Positions 1-9,885 of a DNA stretch of 9,885 bases are shown here, one piece after another. Position 1 is the first letter of the stretch. Each line of letters opens with the position of its first letter. The stretch lies in the IMG/VR virus record IMGVR_UViG_2534681835_000035; one strand, written 5' to 3'. The stretch is from a virus. Its lineage: Duplodnaviria; Heunggongvirae; Uroviricota; Caudoviricetes. The translations under genes and the position numbers were made by a program. The notes under the pieces were generated by a model. The model had not been told where the DNA came from, searched no databases, and worked only from the letters and a program-made list of their open reading frames with translations.

Positions 1-348
1 GCCTGCGGCAACGGCTTTCCGGCTGATGGTCGTACGGACCTTTTTACCCCGGAGAACACCGGCAAGTCCCATAACCGCCATGAGACGTGCCACTGTACAT
101 CTGGCCACCCTGATTCCTTCCCGTAACAACTGACGCCAGACTTTACGCACACCGTACACCTGATGATTTTCATCGTATACGCGCTGTATCTCTCTCTTCA
201 GCCAGTCGTCGTGCTGCGCACGGGCACTGCGTTTATCCGGATGATGTCGCTGTTGCTGACAATGGTAATACGTTGACGGGGCAATATGCAGTTCGCTGCA
301 TACCGGTCCGACCCCGTACTGCTCACGCAGCTTATCCAGCAGTGGCAT
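1..348 (-). CDS. IS3-family transposase OrfB (DDE catalytic subunit), N-terminal part only; 3' end outside window
   Basis: The ATG at 348..346 overlaps the orfA stop (ATGA). Translation [16 protein letters not shown]... continues to position 1 as ...GVLRGKKVRTTISRKAVAAG with no stop, in the -1 frame relative to orfA as expected for IS3-family OrfAB frameshifting. Confidence 0.85.
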   Translation of the reverse strand, partial: MPLLDKLREQYGVGPVCSELHIAPSTYYHCQQQRHHPDKRSARAQHDDWLKREIQRVYDENHQVYGVRKVWRQLLREGIRVARCTVARLMAVMGLAGVLRGKKVRTTISRKAVAAG

Positions 349-674
349 CATTTTTTCCAGAGGCGGTCGAACTCCGCCTTCGCAAAATAAGCGGAAGCCT
401 GGCGAAGGATATCGTTACTGCGGCGCAGTTCACGATTTTCACGTTCCAGCTCTTTCAGACGCTGACGTTCAGCGCTGGTGAGCCCACCATCACCGCCCCC
501 GGTATCCCGCTCATGCTGGCGAACCCAGACACGCAGAGTCTCCGGCGTACAGCCAATCTTTGGGGCAATGGAACAAATTGCCGCCCACTGTGAGTCATAT
601 TCATCCTGACTTTCCAGAACCATACGAATCGCCCGCTGACGGACTTCGGGGGAAAAACGAGTATTTTTAGTCAT
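348..674 (-). CDS. IS3-family transposase OrfA (HTH and leucine-zipper subunit)
   Basis: 108-aa [60 protein letters not shown]...[36 protein letters not shown], recognised as IS629/IS1203-type OrfA. An A-rich slippery run (CTG GAA AAA ATG A) sits at its 3' end, overlapping the orfB ATG. Confidence 0.9.
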
Positions 675-699
675 CCTGTTTACCTCTTTCTCAGGGAGT

Positions 700-1155
700 T
701 TAGTCTCCAGGATTTCCGGGGCGGTTCAGTTCAGCCATTTTGCGCTTAGTCATCCCCCGCCCCACATAACGCTGACTCAGAACATTGAGCAGCCCGGGAT
801 AACCTGCCAGTACTTCACCAATAACCCTGTCGATTATTAACGCCTCTGAATCGGTACAATGTGCCAGCCAGCTTTTTTGATTGCCGTTGATCATATCCCG
901 CAAAAAAGCCTCAAGTTCAGGTTTGTCCAGACCCGCTTTTTTCATCCTCCGGAGCGCCTCGTTAATTGCCGTTTTTGTCAGCTTTTTAGAGGTCAGTAAT
1001 TGGTTGAACATATTTCCCGTCTTACCGTCGCCAATATACGACCAACGCCCCCACATACGCAGTTTCCCCTGGATCCAGACACTTTCCAGCGTTTTCAGGC
1101 GTAAATGCTCACCGCTTTTGCCTGTAATTTCCGGGTATATCATATTTATGCTCAC
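700..1155 (-). CDS. Putative late-gene antiterminator (Q-like), 3' end disrupted by the IS insertion (last ~9 codons and the stop are IS-derived)
   Basis: 151-aa ORF directly downstream of rusA with an ATGA start/stop overlap, which is the position Q occupies in lambdoid phages. The reading frame crosses the IS terminus at 728/729, so the tail ...LNRPGNPGD and the stop are encoded by the IS inverted repeat. The Q assignment is by position and loose resemblance only, not by a recognised motif. Confidence 0.5.
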
Positions 1156-1511
1156 TCACTTTCAATTTTGTAAATCTTCACGCCCAGCCGCCCACCAGAA
1201 ACGAGCTGGCCGCGCACAATATTGATTTCATCAAACTGCTCGTCGTCTATGAGAAGTCCGGCATGCGTCAGCGCATCCAGTGGTGCTTTCAGGATATTGT
1301 CCAGGTCACGACGGCGCTTATCCGGTGGCTCTGCAATAATCTTTATCGCCAGCCTTCCGGACAGGTTTAATTTCAGCCGCTGCTGGCGAACAATAAGTGC
1401 CACATCCCGGCGATAACGCTCACCGGCTTTTGATACAAAATATGTGCTGCCACGACGTCGCCAGTAGGTGTTCACCGTCGGCGGGTAAGGCAAAACAAAC
1501 TCTATACGCAT
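1152..1511 (-). CDS. rusA: RusA-family Holliday junction resolvase (crossover junction endodeoxyribonuclease)
   Basis: 119 aa, MRIEFVLPYPPTVNTYWRRRG...PDKRRRDLDNILKAPLDALTHAGLLIDDEQF, matches the E. coli RusA pattern (PWPPS.N.YYR ... PDRRRRDLDN..KA..DALT.AG...DD.Q). Sits in the usual nin-region position upstream of Q. Confidence 0.9.
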   Translation of the reverse strand: MRIEFVLPYPPTVNTYWRRRGSTYFVSKAGERYRRDVALIVRQQRLKLNLSGRLAIKIIAEPPDKRRRDLDNILKAPLDALTHAGLLIDDEQFDEINIVRGQLVSGGRLGVKIYKIESE

Positions 1512-1523
1512 CAGTAACCTCTT

Positions 1524-2627
1524 TTACCCGAGCACGCCGGTTGCAAAGGCGTGATCAAGAAAACGAAAAATTAAATCAACCTGGGAACCATGCTTTTCTT
1601 CGAACGCCAGCGGATCCGCATGAAGCTCGTTGTGATGCTCCCGACACAGCGGTAGCGTGAAAATATCGTGGGATTTTGTTCCCATTCCGCCCTGACCATG
1701 ACCAATCAGATGATGAGGATCGTCCGCTGGCTTACCACAACACGCACACGGCTGTGTCTTTACCCAGCGTGTGTATTTCTCATTTACCCAGCGGCGACGT
1801 TTAGGTCGTTTCATGAAGGATTCCGGAGACTCCGGATCAACGGCAATGCTGACCACCGTCTTTTCCTGTGGTGGGTTCTGTTGCTGGTGGGTGTGAGGCG
1901 GTAGCGCAATATTTTTTGTGCGCTGCTTCAGTATGCTGGTGGCGGTCTGTTCTCCCGGTATGATGTCGCTTTCACGGTATACGGAGCGGATTTTTTCCGC
2001 CGGTAATCCCAGAGAGCGACGCGATACTGCCTCAGGTAATGCGTCCACCACCTGATTGCAGACTGCCCACCAGGATAATTCAGCCAGCGATAATTCCCGC
2101 TCCTGCGTGCCATTCATTACATGGCGTATGACGTCAATCATCCAGGCTGTCAGATTTTGTTGAGTAAGTTGCTCAAGTGATTCGGAGGTCTGGTCGCGCA
2201 GCTGGTTGTCGCAGTGCCAGCACAACACCATTGCGCCAGCACCGTAACTGTGAATAACGGTTTCGCTGTGATGATAATCGCCGTGTGGCCACTGGCAGGA
2301 TTTCACGTGACGTAATAACCAGTCAGACAGTGCACCAGCGCCGCCAGCTGCACGAATCACCCGCTCATCGCTGAAAAATGGCAGCAGTGATTTATCTTCC
2401 GCCAGCGGCTGGCGAACAGCAGGAACCGCTCCAGATGGCAGCGCCCGCATGTTTTTCGGTTCCGGCTCCACCAGCACCCTGCCGCGATGAAAAACTGGCA
2501 ATGATTCACGACCGGGCTTAAGGACCACCAGCCCGAGTTCCGGAACCAGAACAGGTCGAAGTAATACCCGCACATTACCTCCAGACGCGCTGACGGTAGC
2601 AGGCATGTGTCCGTGGCAGATGTGCAC
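1524..2627 (-). CDS. YdfU-like (DUF968-like) prophage protein with a C-terminal Cys/His-rich, HNH-like putative metal-binding motif; start codon uncertain
   Basis: 367-codon ORF from GTG 2627 (alternative ATG at 2606). C-terminal segment KTQPCACCGKPADDPHHLIGHGQGGMGTKSHDIFTLPLCREHHNELH has paired Cys and His residues. The gene sits 12 nt upstream of rusA, the same neighbourhood ydfU has next to Q in the Qin prophage. The DUF968 assignment is from memory. Confidence 0.65.
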   Translation of the reverse strand: MHICHGHMPATVSASGGNVRVLLRPVLVPELGLVVLKPGRESLPVFHRGRVLVEPEPKNMRALPSGAVPAVRQPLAEDKSLLPFFSDERVIRAAGGAGALSDWLLRHVKSCQWPHGDYHHSETVIHSYGAGAMVLCWHCDNQLRDQTSESLEQLTQQNLTAWMIDVIRHVMNGTQERELSLAELSWWAVCNQVVDALPEAVSRRSLGLPAEKIRSVYRESDIIPGEQTATSILKQRTKNIALPPHTHQQQNPPQEKTVVSIAVDPESPESFMKRPKRRRWVNEKYTRWVKTQPCACCGKPADDPHHLIGHGQGGMGTKSHDIFTLPLCREHHNELHADPLAFEEKHGSQVDLIFRFLDHAFATGVLG

Positions 2628-2847
2628 GAACAGGAAGATATACAGAAACGGTCCAGGTCAGACGATCAGCGTTCAGACTCCGCTCCACACGGACACCGCG
2701 ACGCAGATACGCCTCTTGAAGCATATCTGCCTCATCGATCGTACAGAACAGATAGTGAAACCAGCCATACTGAGGCGCACGAAAACGCCTCCCCTGCTTA
2801 ATTTCCGGGTCGGCTTCAGAATTGTGGGATTTTATGTGTTGTGTCAT
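2575..2847 (-). CDS. Hypothetical 90-aa protein overlapping the 5' end of the YdfU-like ORF by 53 nt in a different frame
   Basis: ATG at 2847 with a GGAG Shine-Dalgarno 6 nt upstream. The first ~60 residues look protein-like (MTQHIKSHNSEADPEIKQGRRFRAPQYGWFHYLFCTIDEADMLQEAYLRRG...); the last ~25 residues look like an out-of-frame readthrough. It occupies the position of rem in Qin, but no sequence match is claimed. Confidence 0.45.
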   Translation of the reverse strand: MTQHIKSHNSEADPEIKQGRRFRAPQYGWFHYLFCTIDEADMLQEAYLRRGVRVERSLNADRLTWTVSVYLPVRAHLPRTHACYRQRVWR

Positions 2848-2921
2848 CGGATTCTCCGGTGACAGCAGGTGTCAGTTGTTCAGGCTGACTGCGCGAATTG
2901 TAAGGCAATACGCCGGAATGT

Positions 2922-2950
2922 ACAAACAGAAAACCCGTCAGTAAGACGGG
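2922..2950 (-). terminator. Rho-independent terminator downstream of the YgiW-like gene
   Basis: On the minus strand a CCCGTC-TTACT-GACGGG hairpin (plus 2934..2950) is followed by TTTTCTGTTTGT, about 20 nt after the TAA stop at 2969. Confidence 0.55.
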
Positions 2951-2968
2951 CTTAACAAGCAGGGGCGG

Positions 2969-3313
2969 TTACTTTAATAATTTCAGTGCCTTTACATCAA
3001 CTTCAACACTGCTCAGGTCTTTATCAATTTCACCCTCAATTCTTACTTTGTCTTTCGGAGAAACATTCTGCCCGGCCCATACGCTGTCATCAATATCCGT
3101 GACAATTGTCCCGCTATTGTCACGAAACTCATAACGTTCATCACCCACTTTTTTAACGATGCTCCCTTCAAGGATAACCCATGCATCATCCTTCAGTTCT
3201 TTTGCCTGCGCTACTGTTGAACGCTCTGCTTCTGGCCCCTGGAAACCACCCTGCTGTGCAAAAGCGCCAAAAGACACACCGGAAATAAGTGCTGCAATCA
3301 ATACCTTTTTCAT
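2969..3313 (-). CDS. YgiW/YdeI (BOF) family periplasmic OB-fold protein with signal peptide
   Basis: 114 aa, MKKVLIAALISGVSFGAFA-QQGGFQGP..., with a signal peptide and AFA-QQ cleavage site, and the family pattern GGFQGP...W..L.G.IV......Y.F.D.SGTI..DID...W.G..V.PKD.V.I.GE.DKD..SVE.DVK. AGAGGA Shine-Dalgarno 7 nt before the ATG. Confidence 0.85.
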   Translation of the reverse strand: MKKVLIAALISGVSFGAFAQQGGFQGPEAERSTVAQAKELKDDAWVILEGSIVKKVGDERYEFRDNSGTIVTDIDDSVWAGQNVSPKDKVRIEGEIDKDLSSVEVDVKALKLLK

Positions 3314-3432
3314 TCATAGTCCTCTTTCAGAGATGAACATTCAAACAGCATTTTCAGTATGGTAAAGCGCGGGTGCGTTGAGGATGCCTGACACATCAGA
3401 GGTGGCGGGAGATTACTCCCCCGCCTGGTCTC

Positions 3433-3588
3433 TTACTTCTCAGATTCGTAGTCTACGAAGACAGCGACCTCCGTCTGACCGGTTCGGATTCGCACCTCGC
3501 AGAGGTCTTTCCTCGTTACCAGTGCCGTCACTATGACGGTTAAACAGATGACGATCAGGGCGATTAACATCGCCTTTTGCTGCTTCAT
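3433..3588 (-). CDS. hokD: Hok/Gef-family type I toxin (HokD/RelF-like small membrane peptide)
   Basis: 51 aa, MKQQKAMLIALIVICLTVIVTALVTRKDLCEVRIRTGQTEVAVFVDYESEK, near-identical to my recollection of RelF/HokD and carrying the Hok signature (LT/VTRK.LCE..IR.G..EVA.F..YES). AAGGAG Shine-Dalgarno 9 nt upstream of ATG 3588. The ORF track extends the same frame to an upstream ATG at 3645. Confidence 0.85.
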   Translation of the reverse strand: MKQQKAMLIALIVICLTVIVTALVTRKDLCEVRIRTGQTEVAVFVDYESEK

Positions 3589-3878
3589 AGCCTGCTTCTC
3601 CTTGCCTTTCGGCACGTAAGAGGCTAACCTACATGTGTTCAGCATGGATTGAGCCTCAGATTAATGTTAAGCGTCTTGCAGGACGCGTAATGTTAACTGG
3701 GGCTTTTCTCTATCTGCCGTTGGTGTTCATGCCCGAGGCAGATAGCCTCAAGCACCCGCTGCAATTCTACTTAACTATCCTTTTCCCGCAAACCGTTTTT
3801 ATCCCCAGCGGCAAATCGAATACTCCACCAGCGCCACCGCCATCGCAATTCCTACCGTTGTGAATGCTTCAGGCCAGG
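3589..3878 (-). promoter_or_regulatory. Long hok leader: candidate promoter, upstream in-frame mok-like start, and likely site of an antisense Sok-like RNA on the plus strand
   Basis: 290 bp separate the upstream gene from hok. Candidate minus-strand promoter TTGCGG-N16-TAGAAT (plus 3791..3764). Stable inverted repeats in the leader (TATCTGCC 3711..3718 with GGCAGATA 3737..3744; GCGTC 3671..3675 with GACGC 3682..3686) and an imperfect hairpin just 3' of hok (3404..3425). By analogy with hok/sok loci, an antisense RNA would be transcribed rightward from about 3600..3700, but its ends are not determined. Confidence 0.35.
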
Positions 3879-4436
3879 TCATTGATTCACCTCCTGCGGC
3901 GGTTCTGGTAGCGACATCCAGTGGGTTGCTTGCCTAAGATCATTACCCGGACTAACTGCTATACCTCCGCGCCGGAACGTGCCTCCGAGATAGCGTGCGG
4001 AATATATTAATGGCCCAGCCTCGCTATCGATATTCATCGAAATAAGCACGTTCTGGCTCTTTTCAGGCATTCGCTCAGTACAGCTTATCCAGCCATCCAG
4101 AGTTATCGGAGATCTGGTTGACGTTTCCGAGATTTCCCGAAAATTGTTGGTTGACGAATTCTTATTTTCCCGAAAGTTTCCGGCCTGAAGCATGGCGACG
4201 CGGCAGGCGTTCCAGCCATCAGCATATGTTTTAGTTACACCGTCGAGATGGCAGGTAAGCAAATCCATTTCATCAGGCACTACCATTGCTATCGGCTCTG
4301 CTTCCAGTGATGCCAGCGCGATACGAAACACATTAGCCAGCAGGCTGTCTGAAGACTTGTTATCGTGCGCCGAGTCGCTCAGGAAGCCTGTGATGTATGA
4401 TTTAATCTCCGCGCGTTCTCTGGTAATAGTGCTCAT
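3879..4436 (-). CDS. DUF551-domain prophage protein
   Basis: 185 aa; C-terminal GWISCTERMPEKSQNVLI...YSARYLGG...THWMSLPEPP matches the DUF551 signature as I recall it (W...ERLPE ... THWMPLPEPP). AAGGA Shine-Dalgarno 9 nt upstream; start is 1 nt from the preceding gene's stop. Confidence 0.8.
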   Translation of the reverse strand: MSTITRERAEIKSYITGFLSDSAHDNKSSDSLLANVFRIALASLEAEPIAMVVPDEMDLLTCHLDGVTKTYADGWNACRVAMLQAGNFRENKNSSTNNFREISETSTRSPITLDGWISCTERMPEKSQNVLISMNIDSEAGPLIYSARYLGGTFRRGGIAVSPGNDLRQATHWMSLPEPPQEVNQ

Positions 4437-4437
4437 A

Positions 4438-4656
4438 TCAGTTTTCCTTATACGGATTAATTTTATTGTGCAGTGCGCTGAATGATTCCCATGTCACATC
4501 GGTATATAGCTCAATAACTGGTTCAAATGTCCTTCCAATTATCCAGACCAGTAATAGCGGGGATATCGGTATCATCAACACTATAAACAGAATGAAAAAC
4601 AGAAACTCTGTTGTTCTGCTCTTTCGTGGGTAATTTTTTTCTAAATAATGTTTCAT
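4438..4656 (-). CDS. Small hypothetical membrane protein (one predicted transmembrane helix) in an AT-rich patch
   Basis: 72 aa with hydrophobic core FLFFILFIVLMIPISPLLLVWIIG. Tightly coupled to the DUF551 gene. The ATG is preceded by AGGAGG, then a CCGCCC-GAAA-GGGCGG hairpin, then 6 nt. Confidence 0.55.
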   Translation of the reverse strand: MKHYLEKNYPRKSRTTEFLFFILFIVLMIPISPLLLVWIIGRTFEPVIELYTDVTWESFSALHNKINPYKEN

Positions 4657-4662
4657 TTCTTA

Positions 4663-4684
4663 CCGCCCTTTCGGGCGGCCTCCT
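4663..4684 (-). other. Shine-Dalgarno, stable hairpin, start codon arrangement in the 5' UTR of the small membrane-protein gene
   Basis: Minus strand: AGGAGG (4684..4679), perfect 6-bp stem with GAAA loop (4678..4663), UAAGAA, AUG (4656). The unfolded SD-to-AUG spacing is about 22 nt and becomes about 6 nt if the hairpin forms. Confidence 0.35.
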
Positions 4685-4783
4685 GATGTTCTGAGGGTGC
4701 AGGAATCCCTCCGGTTAAGGATTTAATAAAAATCGTTTCTGATTTAAATCTTCAGTATTTAGTTGTTAGTTGGTTTATCGCCT

Positions 4784-5095
4784 TTATGCTTCAGCCTTAT
4801 TTCGCAACCAGACACAAACCGGGCCATCTTCCGTATCATGAATGGAACCAATAAACCAGCCATCGCCCTCTGGTCGTTCCGGTTCCCATGCAGAAATATC
4901 AGCATCACACGCATCAAGGTCAGCACATCCTTCATCTCTGAAGCAGAGGACGTATTGAAGATTATTTTCCTCCATCCAGGCGTTAAACTCTTCCGTTGAA
5001 ATATATTCCCGACCATCACAGAATTTTTCATATTCAGGATGTGTCCAGTAGCCATATCCGTCACGAACTACCGGCATTTCTTTAATTTTACTCAC
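4784..5095 (-). CDS. Hypothetical small, strongly acidic protein
   Basis: 103 aa with about 24 Asp/Glu against 9 Lys/Arg by my count (DEGCADLDACDADISAWEPERPEGDGW...). GTG start at 5095 with AGGAGG 6 nt upstream, overlapping the previous gene's stop (GTGAGTAA). Confidence 0.6.
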   Translation of the reverse strand: MSKIKEMPVVRDGYGYWTHPEYEKFCDGREYISTEEFNAWMEENNLQYVLCFRDEGCADLDACDADISAWEPERPEGDGWFIGSIHDTEDGPVCVWLRNKAEA

Positions 5096-5315
5096 TGTTA
5101 ACCTCCTGCAACGCTACACGATACGCCTTCTTTATCCACGCCTTACTGCCATATAATTTCGTCTTCATAATAAACACACCTGCACGACTCGCCGATATCC
5201 CCGGACAGGTTAACAGCACAGCATCCACCACACGGTTATGCTTCCGAAACTCCATTACAGTACTGCTGATAACCACCTGCCCCACCGGGCCGTAATCCTG
5301 ATACAGGATTTTCAC
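5088..5315 (-). CDS. Hypothetical 75-aa protein
   Basis: ORF translationally coupled to both neighbours (4-nt overlap upstream, 8-nt overlap downstream). No recognisable family. Confidence 0.5.
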   Translation of the reverse strand: MKILYQDYGPVGQVVISSTVMEFRKHNRVVDAVLLTCPGISASRAGVFIMKTKLYGSKAWIKKAYRVALQEVNSE

Positions 5316-5593
5316 GCAGACACCCTCCTGTCGAAATAAACGTAGTTATTCACTATGCGCAGCGGCATGCCTAATTTTCTGGCAATTTCCCTTCTTTGCA
5401 TGCCTCTCTGATGCAGTTGCCGCGCCAGCTCAATATCACGCTGAGAATATTTTGCCGACGGGTGAAAATCACCACGTAACATCATGCTGATGCCCAGCTC
5501 CCGTGCCTTCGTTCTCACTGCCGCTTCAGTTCGTCCGATAAGTGCGCCAACGCTTTTTACCTTCATCGTTCCCGCACACTGCCGGAGTATCAT
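5312..5593 (-). CDS. Hypothetical small protein with two helix-turn-helix-like segments; start uncertain
   Basis: ATG at 5593 (MILRQ...); alternatives are ATG 5566 and the ORF-track start 5716, which would overlap the upstream gene by 91 nt. HTH-like segments SVGALIGRTEAAVRTKARELGI and QRREIARKLGMPLRIVNNYV. Confidence 0.45.
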   Translation of the reverse strand: MILRQCAGTMKVKSVGALIGRTEAAVRTKARELGISMMLRGDFHPSAKYSQRDIELARQLHQRGMQRREIARKLGMPLRIVNNYVYFDRRVSA

Positions 5594-5625
5594 GATTTCC
5601 GCCCGGCACCACGTCTTCCACCCAC

Positions 5626-6360
5626 TCACCGCTGCTGTTCTCTGGTGGCGGTAATATCCCGGAGAATATCCCGGCACTTGTTCAGCTCCCGCAGCGCGGC
5701 GCAGACTCGCTCCCACTTCTGAACCTGACCTTTTGCCCGGCGCAGCTCGCGGTTAGCCACATGCAGCGATGGTAAAATCAGACCATCCGGATGCTTTCTG
5801 GTGAACGACGGCTGTGACTGCACTGTGACCGCCACACTTTCCGTTTTTATTTCTTCCTGTGTTTCCGCTTCCCCGACTGGTAACGCAACACCTGCTGGCT
5901 GAGGAAAGGCTTTACCATCCGTTTCCGCTATGGATGCGGCTTTCGGCTCTGCCGGTAAATCAGCGCCCGGTATGCAGTACCGAAATTTACCGCCCTGATT
6001 CACGCGAATCAGACGCCCTTTGCTGATTGCCATGGCCAGTGATGAATTCGCCCGGCGGGAGGTAATCCCGAACATCAGTGCCAGCTCATCCGCCGTTTGT
6101 GGGCCATGATGTTCAATCGCCTCAGTCAGCATTTGCGCTGTCACTTTCGGTACCGGTGACACTGGTTCACTTTCACCAGCCTGAATCAGCCACCACATCG
6201 AACCCTTGTTATCCGCTTCACCACGGCGCTTCAGTTTCCACAGTTCGTTGACAGCATCTTCGCGGCTGATTCCAAGGCGCGATGCCACTACCTGTGAAGA
6301 GGCTTTTTTCAGTGCTTTCAGTGCGTCAAATACAGTTTCCATTAAAACGTCCTCCAACAA
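5626..6360 (-). CDS. YdaW-like (DUF1627-like) prophage protein with two winged-helix-like repeats
   Basis: 244 aa, 3 nt downstream of the DnaC-like gene, as ydaW follows ydaV in Rac. Internal repeats [24 protein letters not shown] and [29 protein letters not shown]. Family name is from memory. Confidence 0.65.
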
Positions 6361-6363
6361 AAA

Positions 6364-7110
6364 TTACTTCACAACCCTCTGATTGCTGACATTTGGACGC
6401 CAGCTATCCCAGTTAAACGTCACCCACCGACCACCGTTCATGGTCATGCGGTCCATAATCCTCTCACCAAGAAGCGTGCTCATTGCGGCATGATTCAGGT
6501 TTGTTAACATCCCGACACTGCACAGTGATGCTGTCCGGCGATCAATTATCTGGTGTAATACCACCTGCTCGTTTTTCGTCTCCCGCTGAACGCCTATTTC
6601 ATCCAGGACCAGCAAATCAACACTGCAAAGCTCCTGTAAAAATTTTTCCCCGGATTTGCCGTTGTCGTAGCTGTCATGCAACACGCTCATGACATCAGAC
6701 ACGGTGACGATAATCACGCTGCGCCCCTTCGCCATCAGCCGGTTACCCATCGCCGCTGCAAGGTGATTTTTCCCGGTGCCGGTTTTACCGCTGAACACAA
6801 AATTCGTGCACCCGGTCATCAGTTCGTCAGCTATGGATTTGGCCTGGCTCAGCGCGTATTTTTGCCCGTCGTTCTGCACCTGATAATTCGCAAACGAGCA
6901 TTTGCTGTGCAGAGGCTGGATGCCCGAACGATTCAGGATTTTTTCCACCCGCAACTGGTGATTCTGGCGGTTAATCTCCTCGCTGCGTTTTCGTCCTTCA
7001 ACAAGTTGCCATTCCCGCCACTCCTCCACCGTCCGGTACGGTGGAACCGACGCCTGTGGTGCAAGTCTGCGAATACGTTCAAGAACCCCGGCTGCCGCAA
7101 TGTTTTTCAT
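6364..7110 (-). CDS. DnaC-like helicase loader (AAA+ IstB-like ATPase), phage replication protein
   Basis: 248 aa, collinear with E. coli DnaC: RSGIQPLHSKCSFANYQV, Walker A FSGKTGTGKNHLAAAMG, Walker B DLLVLDEIGVQ, C-terminal WVTFNWDSWR. Confidence 0.9.
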   Translation of the reverse strand: MKNIAAAGVLERIRRLAPQASVPPYRTVEEWREWQLVEGRKRSEEINRQNHQLRVEKILNRSGIQPLHSKCSFANYQVQNDGQKYALSQAKSIADELMTGCTNFVFSGKTGTGKNHLAAAMGNRLMAKGRSVIIVTVSDVMSVLHDSYDNGKSGEKFLQELCSVDLLVLDEIGVQRETKNEQVVLHQIIDRRTASLCSVGMLTNLNHAAMSTLLGERIMDRMTMNGGRWVTFNWDSWRPNVSNQRVVK

Positions 7111-7116
7111 GCCACA

Positions 7117-7770
7117 TCACCCCCTGAATCCCGGCGGAATTTCGGTATCCGGTTCAGAAATATGATTCACACAACGCTGGTTGTTCGTGCCGCTTACCGG
7201 GAGCAACCAGGGGTTTTCAAAATTCCGGTCCGGCCCAAAAAACGTCGTCGCTCGCTGAACAAATTCCGTTCCCGTTTTCCCGGTAGCCGCCAGGTATCTT
7301 GCGTAACGCCTCACACCATCCAGTATGGCCTCTGGTGGCACCCCCTCGCGTAATCTGGCCTTCCAGGCACTGAAAGCGGATTTCTTCGGGTTTGCCCCAG
7401 CACGCAACGGGTATTCCCGCCAGACCTGTTCGAACACATCCGGATAATCCACTCGTCCCACAGGCTGCCCGGTGTTTTCCGGGACTACCCGATCGGCTTC
7501 CCGCTGAATGGCGGAATCGGCTTCAGGCTGCTGCAGTTGGTGTGATTGCTCCGGCCTTGCGGTCATCACCTGCTGCACAGCGCCCGAATCGGCTTTCAGC
7601 GCATACGCTGAATCGGCTTCCGGTGTCGTGCCTGCTGGCTGACCAGGATTGACGGTCTGAACATCCCCTGCCTGGTTCGTGGCGTTTTTTACGCCATGGA
7701 CCATAGTGTTTTGATCTTCTTGATCTGTATCTTTATCTGTATCTTTATCTGTCGTGACTCGTCGTGACAT
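7117..7770 (-). CDS. Replication-initiator-like protein, C-terminal part (ORF2), possibly the 3' portion of a single gene frameshifted relative to 7745..8188
   Basis: 217 aa, ending 6 nt before the DnaC-like gene. C-terminal domain DYPDVFEQVWREYPLRAGANPKKSAFSAWKARL...TGKTGTEFVQRATTFFGPDRNFENPW resembles a replisome-organiser C-terminal motif. The 5' end lies inside the iteron array and encodes TDKDTDKDTD from tandem repeats. Confidence 0.6.
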   Translation of the reverse strand: MSRRVTTDKDTDKDTDQEDQNTMVHGVKNATNQAGDVQTVNPGQPAGTTPEADSAYALKADSGAVQQVMTARPEQSHQLQQPEADSAIQREADRVVPENTGQPVGRVDYPDVFEQVWREYPLRAGANPKKSAFSAWKARLREGVPPEAILDGVRRYARYLAATGKTGTEFVQRATTFFGPDRNFENPWLLPVSGTNNQRCVNHISEPDTEIPPGFRG

Positions 7771-7799
7771 GTGCGTGACATTTCGTGACGCGCCGTGAC
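7723..7799. repeat. Putative replication-origin repeats: 2.5 copies of a 12-bp tandem repeat (ATCTGTATCTTT) followed by five direct CGTGAC iteron-like repeats at 10-11 bp spacing
   Basis: CGTGAC at 7753, 7763, 7774, 7784 and 7794. The 12-mer is at 7723..7734 and 7735..7746 with a partial copy at 7747..7758. An AT-rich tract lies immediately to the left (about 7700..7750). Confidence 0.6.
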
Positions 7800-8188
7800 A
7801 ATCGCCATTTTGTTCCCGCTTTCTTTCCCTCTCTCGCTGCGCCCTCTTGCGCTCTGCAGGAGATTTTGCGGTTTGACGAAATATTGCCGTTGTCCTCTTT
7901 AAGCACCTGGCGTTTTTCCCATCCAGTGATTAAATCACCATCAAGTACCCGCCCCTGCATCGTCTGCAAAATTGAATCAATTACCTCTTCTGTCACGTCG
8001 AGCGCACTTGCCAAATCTTCTGTCGTGACATCAATGTGACCTCGCGTGACATTTCGTGACGCGCTCACCAGGAGGTGGATATACACTGCCATCACTGTTG
8101 CAATTGGCTGCCCTGACACCCTGGCAATTGTTCGCCACTTAGGGTCATTTGGCATGTCATGCCATAATCTGAGCCAGGCGTTAGCCAT
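7745..8188 (-). CDS. Replication-initiator-like protein, N-terminal part (ORF1)
   Basis: ATG at 8188 with AAGAGGTGA Shine-Dalgarno (the ORF track starts at GTG 8194). N-terminal MANAWLRLWHDMPNDPKWRTIARVSGQPIATVMAVYIHLL resembles phage replication-initiator DNA-binding domains. The ORF ends inside the first iteron cluster and overlaps ORF2 by 26 nt in the +1 frame. Confidence 0.6.
   Translation of the reverse strand: MANAWLRLWHDMPNDPKWRTIARVSGQPIATVMAVYIHLLVSASRNVTRGHIDVTTEDLASALDVTEEVIDSILQTMQGRVLDGDLITGWEKRQVLKEDNGNISSNRKISCRAQEGAAREGKKAGTKWRLSRRVTKCHAHVTTSHDR
7992..8064. repeat. Second iteron-like cluster: CGTGAC at 8024, 8045 and 8055, a TGTGAC variant at 8035, and an inverted copy GTCACG at 7992..7997
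   Basis: The 20-mer CGTGACATTTCGTGACGCGC occurs at both 7774..7793 and 8045..8064. Spacing is again 10-11 bp. Confidence 0.55.
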
Positions 8189-8259
8189 ACTCACCTCTTC
8201 TGATACCGAATCTTTTTACTCACGAGTTGCCGGAAGCGATTCGATACGGCTATTGTCAG

Positions 8260-8685
8260 TCAATGTACTGCCACAGCATTTCCTGCCGGGCCACCACGGT
8301 TCATCTGATTGAAACCGGCGATTGCCACTGCGACAAAATCATCAGCGTCTCTCACCAGTCGCTCCCGCGTCTCCACCAGCTCCCGAAAATAAGCTGAACT
8401 GTGGCTGCGCATTCTGGCCACCAGCAAAGGTGGCATTGCCTTTTCGATCGCTGGTAACAACGCCTGAATTTTTTCAACTGCATCAGGGGTGTCTTTCTCT
8501 ACCCAGCGGAAAATTTTCTGGGTATTGCGAGCCAGGGCTTCCGGATGGCTGTCGTCATACAGTTCAGGAAACGTCATACCCAACTCAAAATAAGCCTGGG
8601 TTATTCCAGCTGCTGGAACTTTTTCGCCATCAGGACGCGCCCAGGCATTCATCGCCATGCGGATGTGTTCATGCTTGATTTTCAT
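8260..8685 (-). CDS. YdaT-like prophage protein (occupies the cII position downstream of cro)
   Basis: 141 aa beginning MKIKHEHI and ending ...VH, matching my recollection of Rac YdaT-family proteins. AGGAG Shine-Dalgarno 8 nt upstream; overlaps the Cro-like gene by 17 nt. Confidence 0.6.
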   Translation of the reverse strand: MKIKHEHIRMAMNAWARPDGEKVPAAGITQAYFELGMTFPELYDDSHPEALARNTQKIFRWVEKDTPDAVEKIQALLPAIEKAMPPLLVARMRSHSSAYFRELVETRERLVRDADDFVAVAIAGFNQMNRGGPAGNAVAVH

Positions 8686-8950
8686 GAATCAAGCTCCTAG
8701 TAAGTGGTTGTGTTAACGTTTTGGTATCTTCCAGCTCGGGCCAAATATTCATCCAATCAAAAGGCCTTAGTTGCTGACGTGTAACTTCACCATTACTGGC
8801 TCGCTCAATAAGGACACATAACGATGCCCCTAACATTTGACCTTTACTCAATGCCTTTCTTAGATAACCGATGCTAGTACCACACTCACATGCAAACATA
8901 CGCTGTTCATCTGACGAAAGAGAATTGAGAAATATTCTTAATTCTTCCAT
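8669..8950 (-). CDS. Cro/YdaS-like HTH regulator
   Basis: 93 aa with a Cro-like motif (GTSIGYLRKALSKGQMLGASLCVLIERASNGEVTRQQLRPFDW). AAGGAG Shine-Dalgarno 6 nt upstream. Divergent from the repressor gene. Confidence 0.7.
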   Translation of the reverse strand: MEELRIFLNSLSSDEQRMFACECGTSIGYLRKALSKGQMLGASLCVLIERASNGEVTRQQLRPFDWMNIWPELEDTKTLTQPLTRSLIHENQA

Positions 8951-9049
8951 AGCTACTCCTTAGTAAACACAGCAAGAATACCCACAGGTAAACAAAAGTC
9001 AATACCCTTGGGTTGTTTACCTTGCGGTAATCGCATCTATTATTTACCT
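8951..9049. promoter_or_regulatory. Divergent promoter/operator region between the Cro-like and repressor genes (OR-like)
   Basis: Three TACC-N4-GGTA-type inverted repeats: 8979..8990 (TACCCACAGGTA), 9003..9014 (TACCCTTGGGTT, one arm imperfect) and 9018..9029 (TACCTTGCGGTA). Leftward PR-like promoter TTGACT (plus 9002..8997), 16-nt spacer, TATTCT (8980..8975). Rightward PRM-like -10 TATTAT (9038..9043) ends 6 nt before ATG 9050, suggesting a leaderless repressor mRNA. Confidence 0.55.
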
Positions 9050-9467
9050 ATGGACAAATATGAATTTAGACGACAACAACTCATCAAAATTCGTGATGAG
9101 AAATGCGATGGTAAAGCGGTTAACGTGGCCAGAAAGATCGGTCGCGAGCCTTCTTATGTATCAAGAATGTTGTACCCAGAGGGGAAAAAGGAAAAAACGG
9201 ATCGCTGATGATATGGTGGAGATTATAGAAGAGTCCTTTGGGTTACCCCGGGGATGGATGGATGGTATCGTTTCATCATCAACGAACACAGCCTCCAATT
9301 ATGAAACAAGGGTTCTAACGCCACGACAACGTATTTTTTTAGATCTCTTAGACGAACTGCCAGAAAGTGAAGCGGATAACTTATTAAAAACTCTTGAAGA
9401 GAAAAAACAGTATTACAATATGATCTACGAAGAAATCCGTAAAAAGAAAGCACAAAACGCATCATAA
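9050..9467 (+). CDS. CI/RacR-like prophage repressor, reading frame interrupted by an apparent +1 frameshift in the G4A5G2A6 tract at 9181..9197
   Basis: Frame A (ATG 9050) encodes an N-terminal HTH (KAVNVARKIGREPSYVSRMLYPEGKK) and stops at 9206..9208. Frame B continues from about 9198 with protein-like sequence RIADDMVEIIEESFGLPRGWMDG...LLKTLEEKKQYYNMIYEEIRKKKAQNAS to 9467. Removing one A from the A6 run would fuse them into a protein of about 138 aa. Confidence 0.6.
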
Positions 9468-9509
9468 CTCACCAAACAACCAGTCACCAGTTAAGACACA
9501 TCAAAAAAT

Positions 9510-9546
9510 TACCCATGGGTATTTACTTTTTAAATACCCATGGGTA
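9510..9546. promoter_or_regulatory. Two perfect 12-bp palindromes TACCCATGGGTA, 25 bp centre to centre: OL-like operators flanking a putative rightward promoter
   Basis: Palindromes at 9510..9521 and 9535..9546 share the TACC-N4-GGTA architecture with the OR-like sites. Between and over them: -35-like TTTACT (9522..9527), 17-nt spacer, -10-like TATCCT (9545..9550). Confidence 0.55.
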
Positions 9547-9732
9547 TCCTTCCTTTCATACCAACCCACCCCGTCCCACAGAACGCAGGGCAATACTTCG
9601 AGTTACCAGGCAGTGGTCAGGGGGTAAGTAGCCAGCCCGAGGCGTAAGAACATGACGGCAGGGTTCAACTTTAATAACTATGCAGCAGGTTTTTGTTCCG
9701 CTACCCCGGCGTTAAGGGGAAATGAGGTCAGC

Positions 9733-9885
9733 ATGGATACTATCGATCTTGGCAACAGCGAATCTCTGGTATGCGGCGTGTTTCCCAACCAGGACGGTAC
9801 GTTTACCGCGATGACGTATACCAAAAGTAAAACGTTTAAAACCGAAGCTGGCGCGCATCGCTGGTTAGCAAGAAACTCCGACTGA
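9733..9885 (+). CDS. Small early protein (YdaF/YdaG-like), first gene of the rightward operon leaving the immunity region
   Basis: 50 aa, MDTIDLGNSESLVCGVFPNQDGTFTAMTYTKSKTFKTEAGAHRWLARNSD, with GAGG Shine-Dalgarno 6 nt upstream of ATG 9733 (the ORF track starts further upstream at 9652). Resemblance to Rac YdaF is from memory. Confidence 0.5.
   Translation: MDTIDLGNSESLVCGVFPNQDGTFTAMTYTKSKTFKTEAGAHRWLARNSD

Follow-up and report, generated by a model that had tools for sequence, protein, structure and literature searches.

In phage lambda, the repressor gene cI is divergent from cro and cII, with three operators between the divergent genes and more at PL, and the cI mRNA is leaderless. A comparable arrangement is found in the cryptic lambdoid prophages CP-933P and Rac, in which a small helix-turn-helix (HTH) repressor, PaaR2 or RacR, is encoded opposite ydaS and ydaT and is needed to silence toxic early genes (PMC8630535, PMC5700373, PMC5700377). 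The PaaR2 mRNA is also leaderless (PMC8630535). Loss of RacR in K-12 is lethal or toxic (PMC5700373, PMC5700377), and essential prophage repressors are known more generally (PMC5917428). Further points of comparison are DicA of prophage Qin, whose gene is followed by DUF1391/ydfA and then by dicB, a ydfD-like gene and a ydfE-like exonuclease gene, and the 228-aa cI of phage mEp043.

Here we examine an E. coli prophage that combines features of all these systems. The 9,885-nt stretch of DNA analysed (the window) comes from the 2012 draft of E. coli DEC8E (GCA_000249875.2), where it matches contig AIGJ01000049.1 exactly over positions 1-9885. As deposited, its repressor gene is divided between two reading frames, for which an initial annotation had proposed sequencing error, true inactivation or a slippage switch. 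We consider it very likely that the frameshift is a homopolymer-length artefact of the draft assembly and not a property of the bacterium.

Immunity region of the prophage

The repressor gene is divergent from a ydaS-like and a ydaT-like gene, which are followed by replication genes. Downstream in the repressor direction are DUF1391, an intact dicB, a ydfD-like gene and an exonuclease gene, the same order as after dicA in Qin. The features of the region are as follows.

7117..8194, minus strand: replication initiator (phrog_3729), 356 aa in finished genomes, split here by an extra A at 7876
8260..8685, minus strand: ydaT-like gene for a CII-like activator (phrog_163), 141 aa, intact
8669..8950, minus strand: ydaS-like HTH gene, Cro analogue, 93 aa, intact
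8979-8990, 9003-9014 (one mismatch) and 9018-9029: OR-like candidate operator cluster, three TACCNNNNGGTA sites between the divergent repressor and cro-like genes
9050..9208, plus strand: repressor N-terminal fragment, 52 aa plus stop, residues 1-47 matching the intact 139-aa protein
9181..9197, plus strand: G4A5G2A6 tract, one A short in each of its two A runs relative to finished genomes
9198..9467, plus strand: remainder of the repressor in the +1 frame, ...RIADDMVEIIEES... to AQNAS*, covering what is left of the N-terminal module plus the DicA-type C-terminal domain
9510..9546: OL-like candidate operators, a pair of perfect TACCCATGGGTA palindromes after the repressor gene and ahead of the DUF1391...dicB...exonuclease operon

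The window holds seven TACCNNNNGGTA sites, a number reached by 0 of 200 shuffles, and five of them are clustered around the repressor. The spacing matters: TACCN4GGTA is the correct form, and the mis-spaced TACCN6GGTA, our first operator pattern, was not enriched. The OR-like cluster (8979..9029) overlaps divergent promoter-like hexamers at 9016-9043 on the plus strand and 9002-8975 on the minus strand. The plus-strand element, TTTACC-16-TATTAT within 9016-9050, has a -10 hexamer that ends 7 nt before the repressor ATG, so the repressor mRNA is probably leaderless. Together the two OL-like palindromes make up a 37-nt inverted repeat, flagged in a scan as terminator-like on both strands.

This layout agrees with that of lambda in its divergent repressor, cro-like and cII-like genes, its three candidate operators in between and its further ones at a PL-like position, whereas the candidate operators are 12-bp TACCNNNNGGTA sites and the repressor has only 139 aa and no S24 domain. 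The small HTH repressor opposite ydaS/ydaT in a cryptic lambdoid prophage is shared with the PaaR2 and RacR systems. However, no toxin-antitoxin pair lies downstream here, and the PaaR2 operators are GTTTAGTAA repeats, unlike those of the window. Similar TACC...GGTA repeats are found in the mEp043 intergenic region. The description of the gene as 'RacR-like' holds for its position, neighbouring genes and role and fails for its sequence; homology to RacR was rejected, given that BLASTP against K-12 RacR returned E=2.3.

At the other end of the window (1-700), an insertion of IS1203 (IS3 family) truncates a DUF1133 / antiterminator-Q-like gene. This insertion is common to a few O111 genomes only and is shared collinearly by strain 8E only.

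The split gene and the protein it encodes

A +1 shift in a G4A5G2A6 tract had been reported from the sequence, and we confirm its coordinates, its composition and the direction of the shift in the window. Positions 9181..9198 read GGGGAAAAAGGAAAAAAC, that is, GGGG (9181-9184), AAAAA (9185-9189), GG (9190-9191), AAAAAA (9192-9197) and C (9198). The 52-codon ORF (9050..9208) runs from the ATG at 9050 to the TGA at 9206-9208, with the product MDKYEF...YPEGKKEKTDR*. The +1 frame is open through the tract to the TAA at 9465-9467, encodes ...KRIADDMVEIIEESFGLPRGWMD...AQNAS, and joins the first ORF inside GGGGAAAAAGGAAAAAAC. In the draft annotation, an 84-aa gene is placed at 9213..9467.

Adding one A to each run joins the two pieces of the window into a 139-aa protein identical to WP_000362152.1, which is a single 420-nt CDS in the closest finished genomes and is annotated in many finished E. 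coli genomes. In finished genomes the intact tract is either G4A6G2A7 (O111 haplotype) or G4A5G3A7 (major haplotype). Compared with the O111-haplotype genomes, the window has A5 for A6 and A6 for A7, both indels within mononucleotide runs; these are two separate 1-nt deletions in adjacent A runs, not one event. The initial annotation had named reads with one fewer A as a way in which a single ORF might be restored, but the intact allele instead has two more A's (A6 and A7).

The homologous mEp043 cI reads through the junction unbroken (YPEGKSGKKRIADDMMELIEKSFNLPRGWMD). Because the restored tract gives WP_000362152.1 and mEp043 cI is continuous at this point, both halves of the split ORF are real coding sequence, as had been suspected. 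Another possibility raised at the outset, a naturally short repressor of about 52 aa with a separate gene in the second frame, finds no counterpart among the homologues examined: all are single ORFs, and the intact 139-aa form is standard.

The intact protein matches phrog_5736, 'transcriptional regulator' (4.7e-70). Over residues 1-86, including the tract-spanning segment, it shares 65% identity with the mEp043 cI N-terminal DNA-binding module, and residues 89-134 (about 46) are homologous to the C-terminus of K-12 DicA (33% identity, E=1e-7). The C-terminus is also homologous to that of phage Tritos CI. On these homologies we class the protein as a predicted CI-type immunity repressor of mosaic build, with an mEp043-cI-like N-terminal and a DicA-like C-terminal domain. 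The resemblance to either parent is partial: mEp043 cI is longer and has a different C-terminal domain, and the N-terminal DNA-binding domain of DicA is unrelated to the one found here. The match to NF007257 (DicA family) covers residues 84-136 only, at 24.1 bits against a cut-off of 101, and falls short of full length. With the intact 139-aa protein, a Pfam search returned no match and a PDB sequence search no match below E=0.07, and no S24/LexA-like autocleavage domain, as in the lambda CI subclass, was found; the DicA/Tritos-CI-like C-terminus is present instead.

The same modules occur in other combinations. The N-terminal module is common to the cI proteins of mEp043 and CharmingMan, whose C-termini are long and different, and the C-terminal stretch of about 50 aa is common to DicA and Tritos CI, whose N-termini differ. 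A separate 59-position PHROG of 'unknown function', phrog_27486, matches the N-terminal 50 residues only (7e-37). Since its 59 positions equal the length of the 59-aa product of the A7-to-A6 allele described below, it may have been built from frameshifted copies.

The HTH domain and the C-terminal domain had been placed in different frames that meet between them. The two frames are real, but the break does not separate the domains. It interrupts the conserved N-terminal DNA-binding module immediately past the predicted recognition helix. On the model of the five-helix Xre/434 fold, the final helices would be missing from the 52-aa fragment.

Tract alleles in genomes and metagenomes

About 15% of complete E. 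coli genomes have the repressor gene; our survey set comprised about 820 (819-822) carriers among 5426 RefSeq complete genomes. The window allele is found in none of these roughly 820, some 70 of them O111 genomes, and the highest identity that any RefSeq complete genome reaches with the window corresponds to exactly two gaps. G4A6G2A6 is absent as well (0 of 819-822). The tract has an in-frame length in 820/822, the remaining two genomes having G4A5G3A6, and it was in frame throughout two evenly spaced samples (60/60 records each). Among metagenome contigs, scanned without restriction on the length of the tract, 34/35 were in frame (28 G4A5G3A7, 5 G4A6G2A7 and 1 G4A6G3A6) and 0/35 had the window allele. 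The sole length variant, G4A4G3A7 on CYGL01000076.1 (7127-7173), has its first run shortened from A5 to A4.

One-base-shorter alleles thus exist, also in a few other assemblies. The two complete genomes with G4A5G3A6 are NZ_CP116925.1 (MLI104K2) and NZ_CP122923.1 (ETEC1703), and in both the tract adjoins intact ydaS/ydaT-like genes. CP042981.1 and SRR19977217 are further records with a rare A7-to-A6 allele. Elsewhere such alleles tend to go with the submitting project: one project contributed JABKDV and JABKDT, whereas its contig JABKDW begins beyond the tract, and a second contributed CAKLDH and CAKLDK. In this second project, CAKLD, the alleles lie on two separate haplotypes. The repressor gene is also frameshifted at its other A run (GAGAAAAAACAG) in some protein records. 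The clustering by project, together with the frameshifts at the other A run, suggests platform effects. One disruption is of a different kind: a metagenome scaffold has R7* (AGA to TGA, codon 7) in an otherwise intact repressor copy with a normal tract, which cannot be a homopolymer error.

These data bear directly on the proposal that the A-rich tract is a functional slippage site, acting either as a phase-variable on/off switch or, through transcriptional slippage or ribosomal frameshifting, as a recoding site that yields full-length and HTH-only products. Two adjacent A runs are intrinsically slippage-prone, and shorter alleles do turn up occasionally. The intact GGA AAA AAA also forms an in-phase A_AAA_AAA heptamer, present in mEp043 cI too, from which the -1 frame stops after three codons. 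However, AAA AAA is the commonest Lys-Lys coding in E. coli, the heptamer is not kept in the homologous CharmingMan repressor (GGC AAA AAA), and the window allele requires a +1 shift, for which there is no recognisable signal. A split into two frames is seen in no homologue, contingency tracts are typically longer than runs of 5-7 A, and the survey revealed neither expansions nor a lineage with both states. The tract is not length-polymorphic, being invariant in 820/822 complete genomes and 34/35 metagenome contigs, and hence a contingency-type switch is ruled out. The survey has largely refuted functional slippage as a whole, and we regard it as extremely unlikely.

Draft assemblies compared with finished genomes

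Among about 15 billion collected proteins, the exact 52-aa product comes from two contigs only, those of the DEC8E and DEC8A drafts of one project, and the intact 139-aa protein from at least 1000. AIGJ is DEC 8E and AIGF is DEC 8A (PMC4959244). The draft-specific protein from the AIGJ01000049.1 window carries the locus tag ECDEC8E_2669.

Only one genome is collinear with the window in one piece, the finished E. coli O111:H8 strain 8E (CP077465.1), and name, serotype and near-identity suggest that strain 8E is DEC 8E. Across the whole 9885-nt window the two sequences differ by three indels and 0 substitutions: the two tract deletions, the tract being G4A6G2A7 in strain 8E, and the extra A at 7876. 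Wider comparisons of the drafts gave the following differences.

DEC8E draft against strain 8E, 19.2 kb: 4 indels and 1 substitution, with 3 indels in A/T runs >=6, which make up 1.16% of bases (P=6e-6, assuming uniform indels)
DEC8A draft against strain 8E, 18.5 kb: 9 indels and 5 substitutions, with 7 indels in runs >=5 (P=2e-9 if indels are uniform)
DEC8A draft against E2863, 6.7 kb: three 1-nt deletions and 0 substitutions, all 3 deletions in runs (A6, A7 and T7)

This indel spectrum is the classic pattern of homopolymer-length miscalls. Outside the window, at position 16954 of AIGJ01000049.1, the tRNA/integrase region downstream of the prophage has a further A6-to-A5 difference from strain 8E. 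As in the miscalls known from flow-based and long-read drafts, the changes at the repressor tract are one-base contractions in A/T runs of 5-7 that recur within one project, do not occur in finished genomes and give an apparently frameshifted gene. The difference is that here two neighbouring runs are hit, and in both drafts. The DEC drafts were probably made by 454 pyrosequencing.

At 7876, the inserted A (GGTTTG[A]CGAAA) leaves the initiator in two ORFs; its position outside any homopolymer counts against an artefact. Strain 8E, E2863 and the DEC8A draft all lack this A, which is probably a further error of the draft.

The two drafts carry different prophages. That of DEC8E is of the 8E type, and that of DEC8A, which differs in haplotype and structure, is of the E2863 type, without IS1203 in the Q-like gene and with a 1.37-kb deletion and different SNPs. 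For both types, finished genomes have an intact tract. Two origins, with two deletions each, would therefore be needed for a real mutation, which would also have to be present only in these drafts; a context-specific systematic miscall explains the two-haplotype pattern far more simply.

The competing explanation would be a real inactivating double deletion in DEC8 strains or laboratory stocks, in a cryptic prophage that tolerates repressor loss, for instance through weak downstream lethal functions or some other means of silencing them. The same allele does occur in two assemblies, and the initiator frameshift at 7876 in DEC8E could fit a decaying prophage. Other disruptions of the gene exist as well, namely R7*, the A7-to-A6 change in two complete genomes and the A5-to-A4 change in one metagenome contig, and the one-base-shorter alleles in other assemblies, including two RefSeq complete genomes, mean that real frameshifts here are not impossible in principle. 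However, two independent and non-compensating 1-nt losses would be needed on two prophage haplotypes, and the allele is confined to one sequencing project, with 0 of about 820 finished genomes carrying it and the collinear strain 8E intact. The homopolymer pattern also recurs in the remaining differences between draft and finished sequences.

Derepression of ydaS/ydaT and dicB would in addition be expected to be harmful (PMC5700373, PMC5700377, PMC5917428). The initial annotation had already called a broken repressor beside intact ydaS/ydaT-like genes unexpected, and the lethality or toxicity of RacR-type loss bears this out (PMC5700373, PMC5700377). Intact ydaS, ydaT and dicB next to a dead repressor would be surprising because equivalent repressors are essential in their lysogens, which agrees with our view that the repressor has not in fact been lost. 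We judge a real inactivation unlikely. Sequencing error, in turn, is strongly supported by the allele distribution, the draft indel spectrum and the two haplotypes.

The least comfortable point of the artefact explanation is that both tract runs are short in both drafts, whereas the other miscalled runs are not common to DEC8A and DEC8E. Independent random errors do not suffice and a context-specific systematic error is needed; the A6GGA7 context must then be unusually error-prone. It is very unlikely that A6GGA7 is instead a real mutational or expression hotspot, with either a true DEC8 double contraction and a tolerated repressor-null prophage or a -1-slippage, HTH-only isoform of about 54 aa that modulates immunity.

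Under the artefact explanation, the DEC8E assembly would have under-called two adjacent A runs (true lengths 6 and 7) by one base each, leaving in place of a normal 139-aa immunity repressor a 52-aa ORF followed by a remainder out of frame. The repressor gene is very probably intact in the cell. The intact protein would act in the manner of lambda CI, PaaR2 or DicA: its N-terminal HTH domain would bind the candidate TACCNNNNGGTA operators on both sides of the gene, silencing the rightward cro/cII-like ydaS-ydaT-replication operon and the leftward dicB-containing operon, and its short helical DicA-type C-terminal domain would probably serve oligomerisation.

Where an early draft shows an apparent pseudogene at a homopolymer tract, comparison with finished genomes should come before any biological interpretation. 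The gene underlying this one is an ordinary, poorly annotated mosaic immunity repressor, labelled 'hypothetical protein' by annotators, and the domain assignment and operator motif given here are modestly useful for its annotation.
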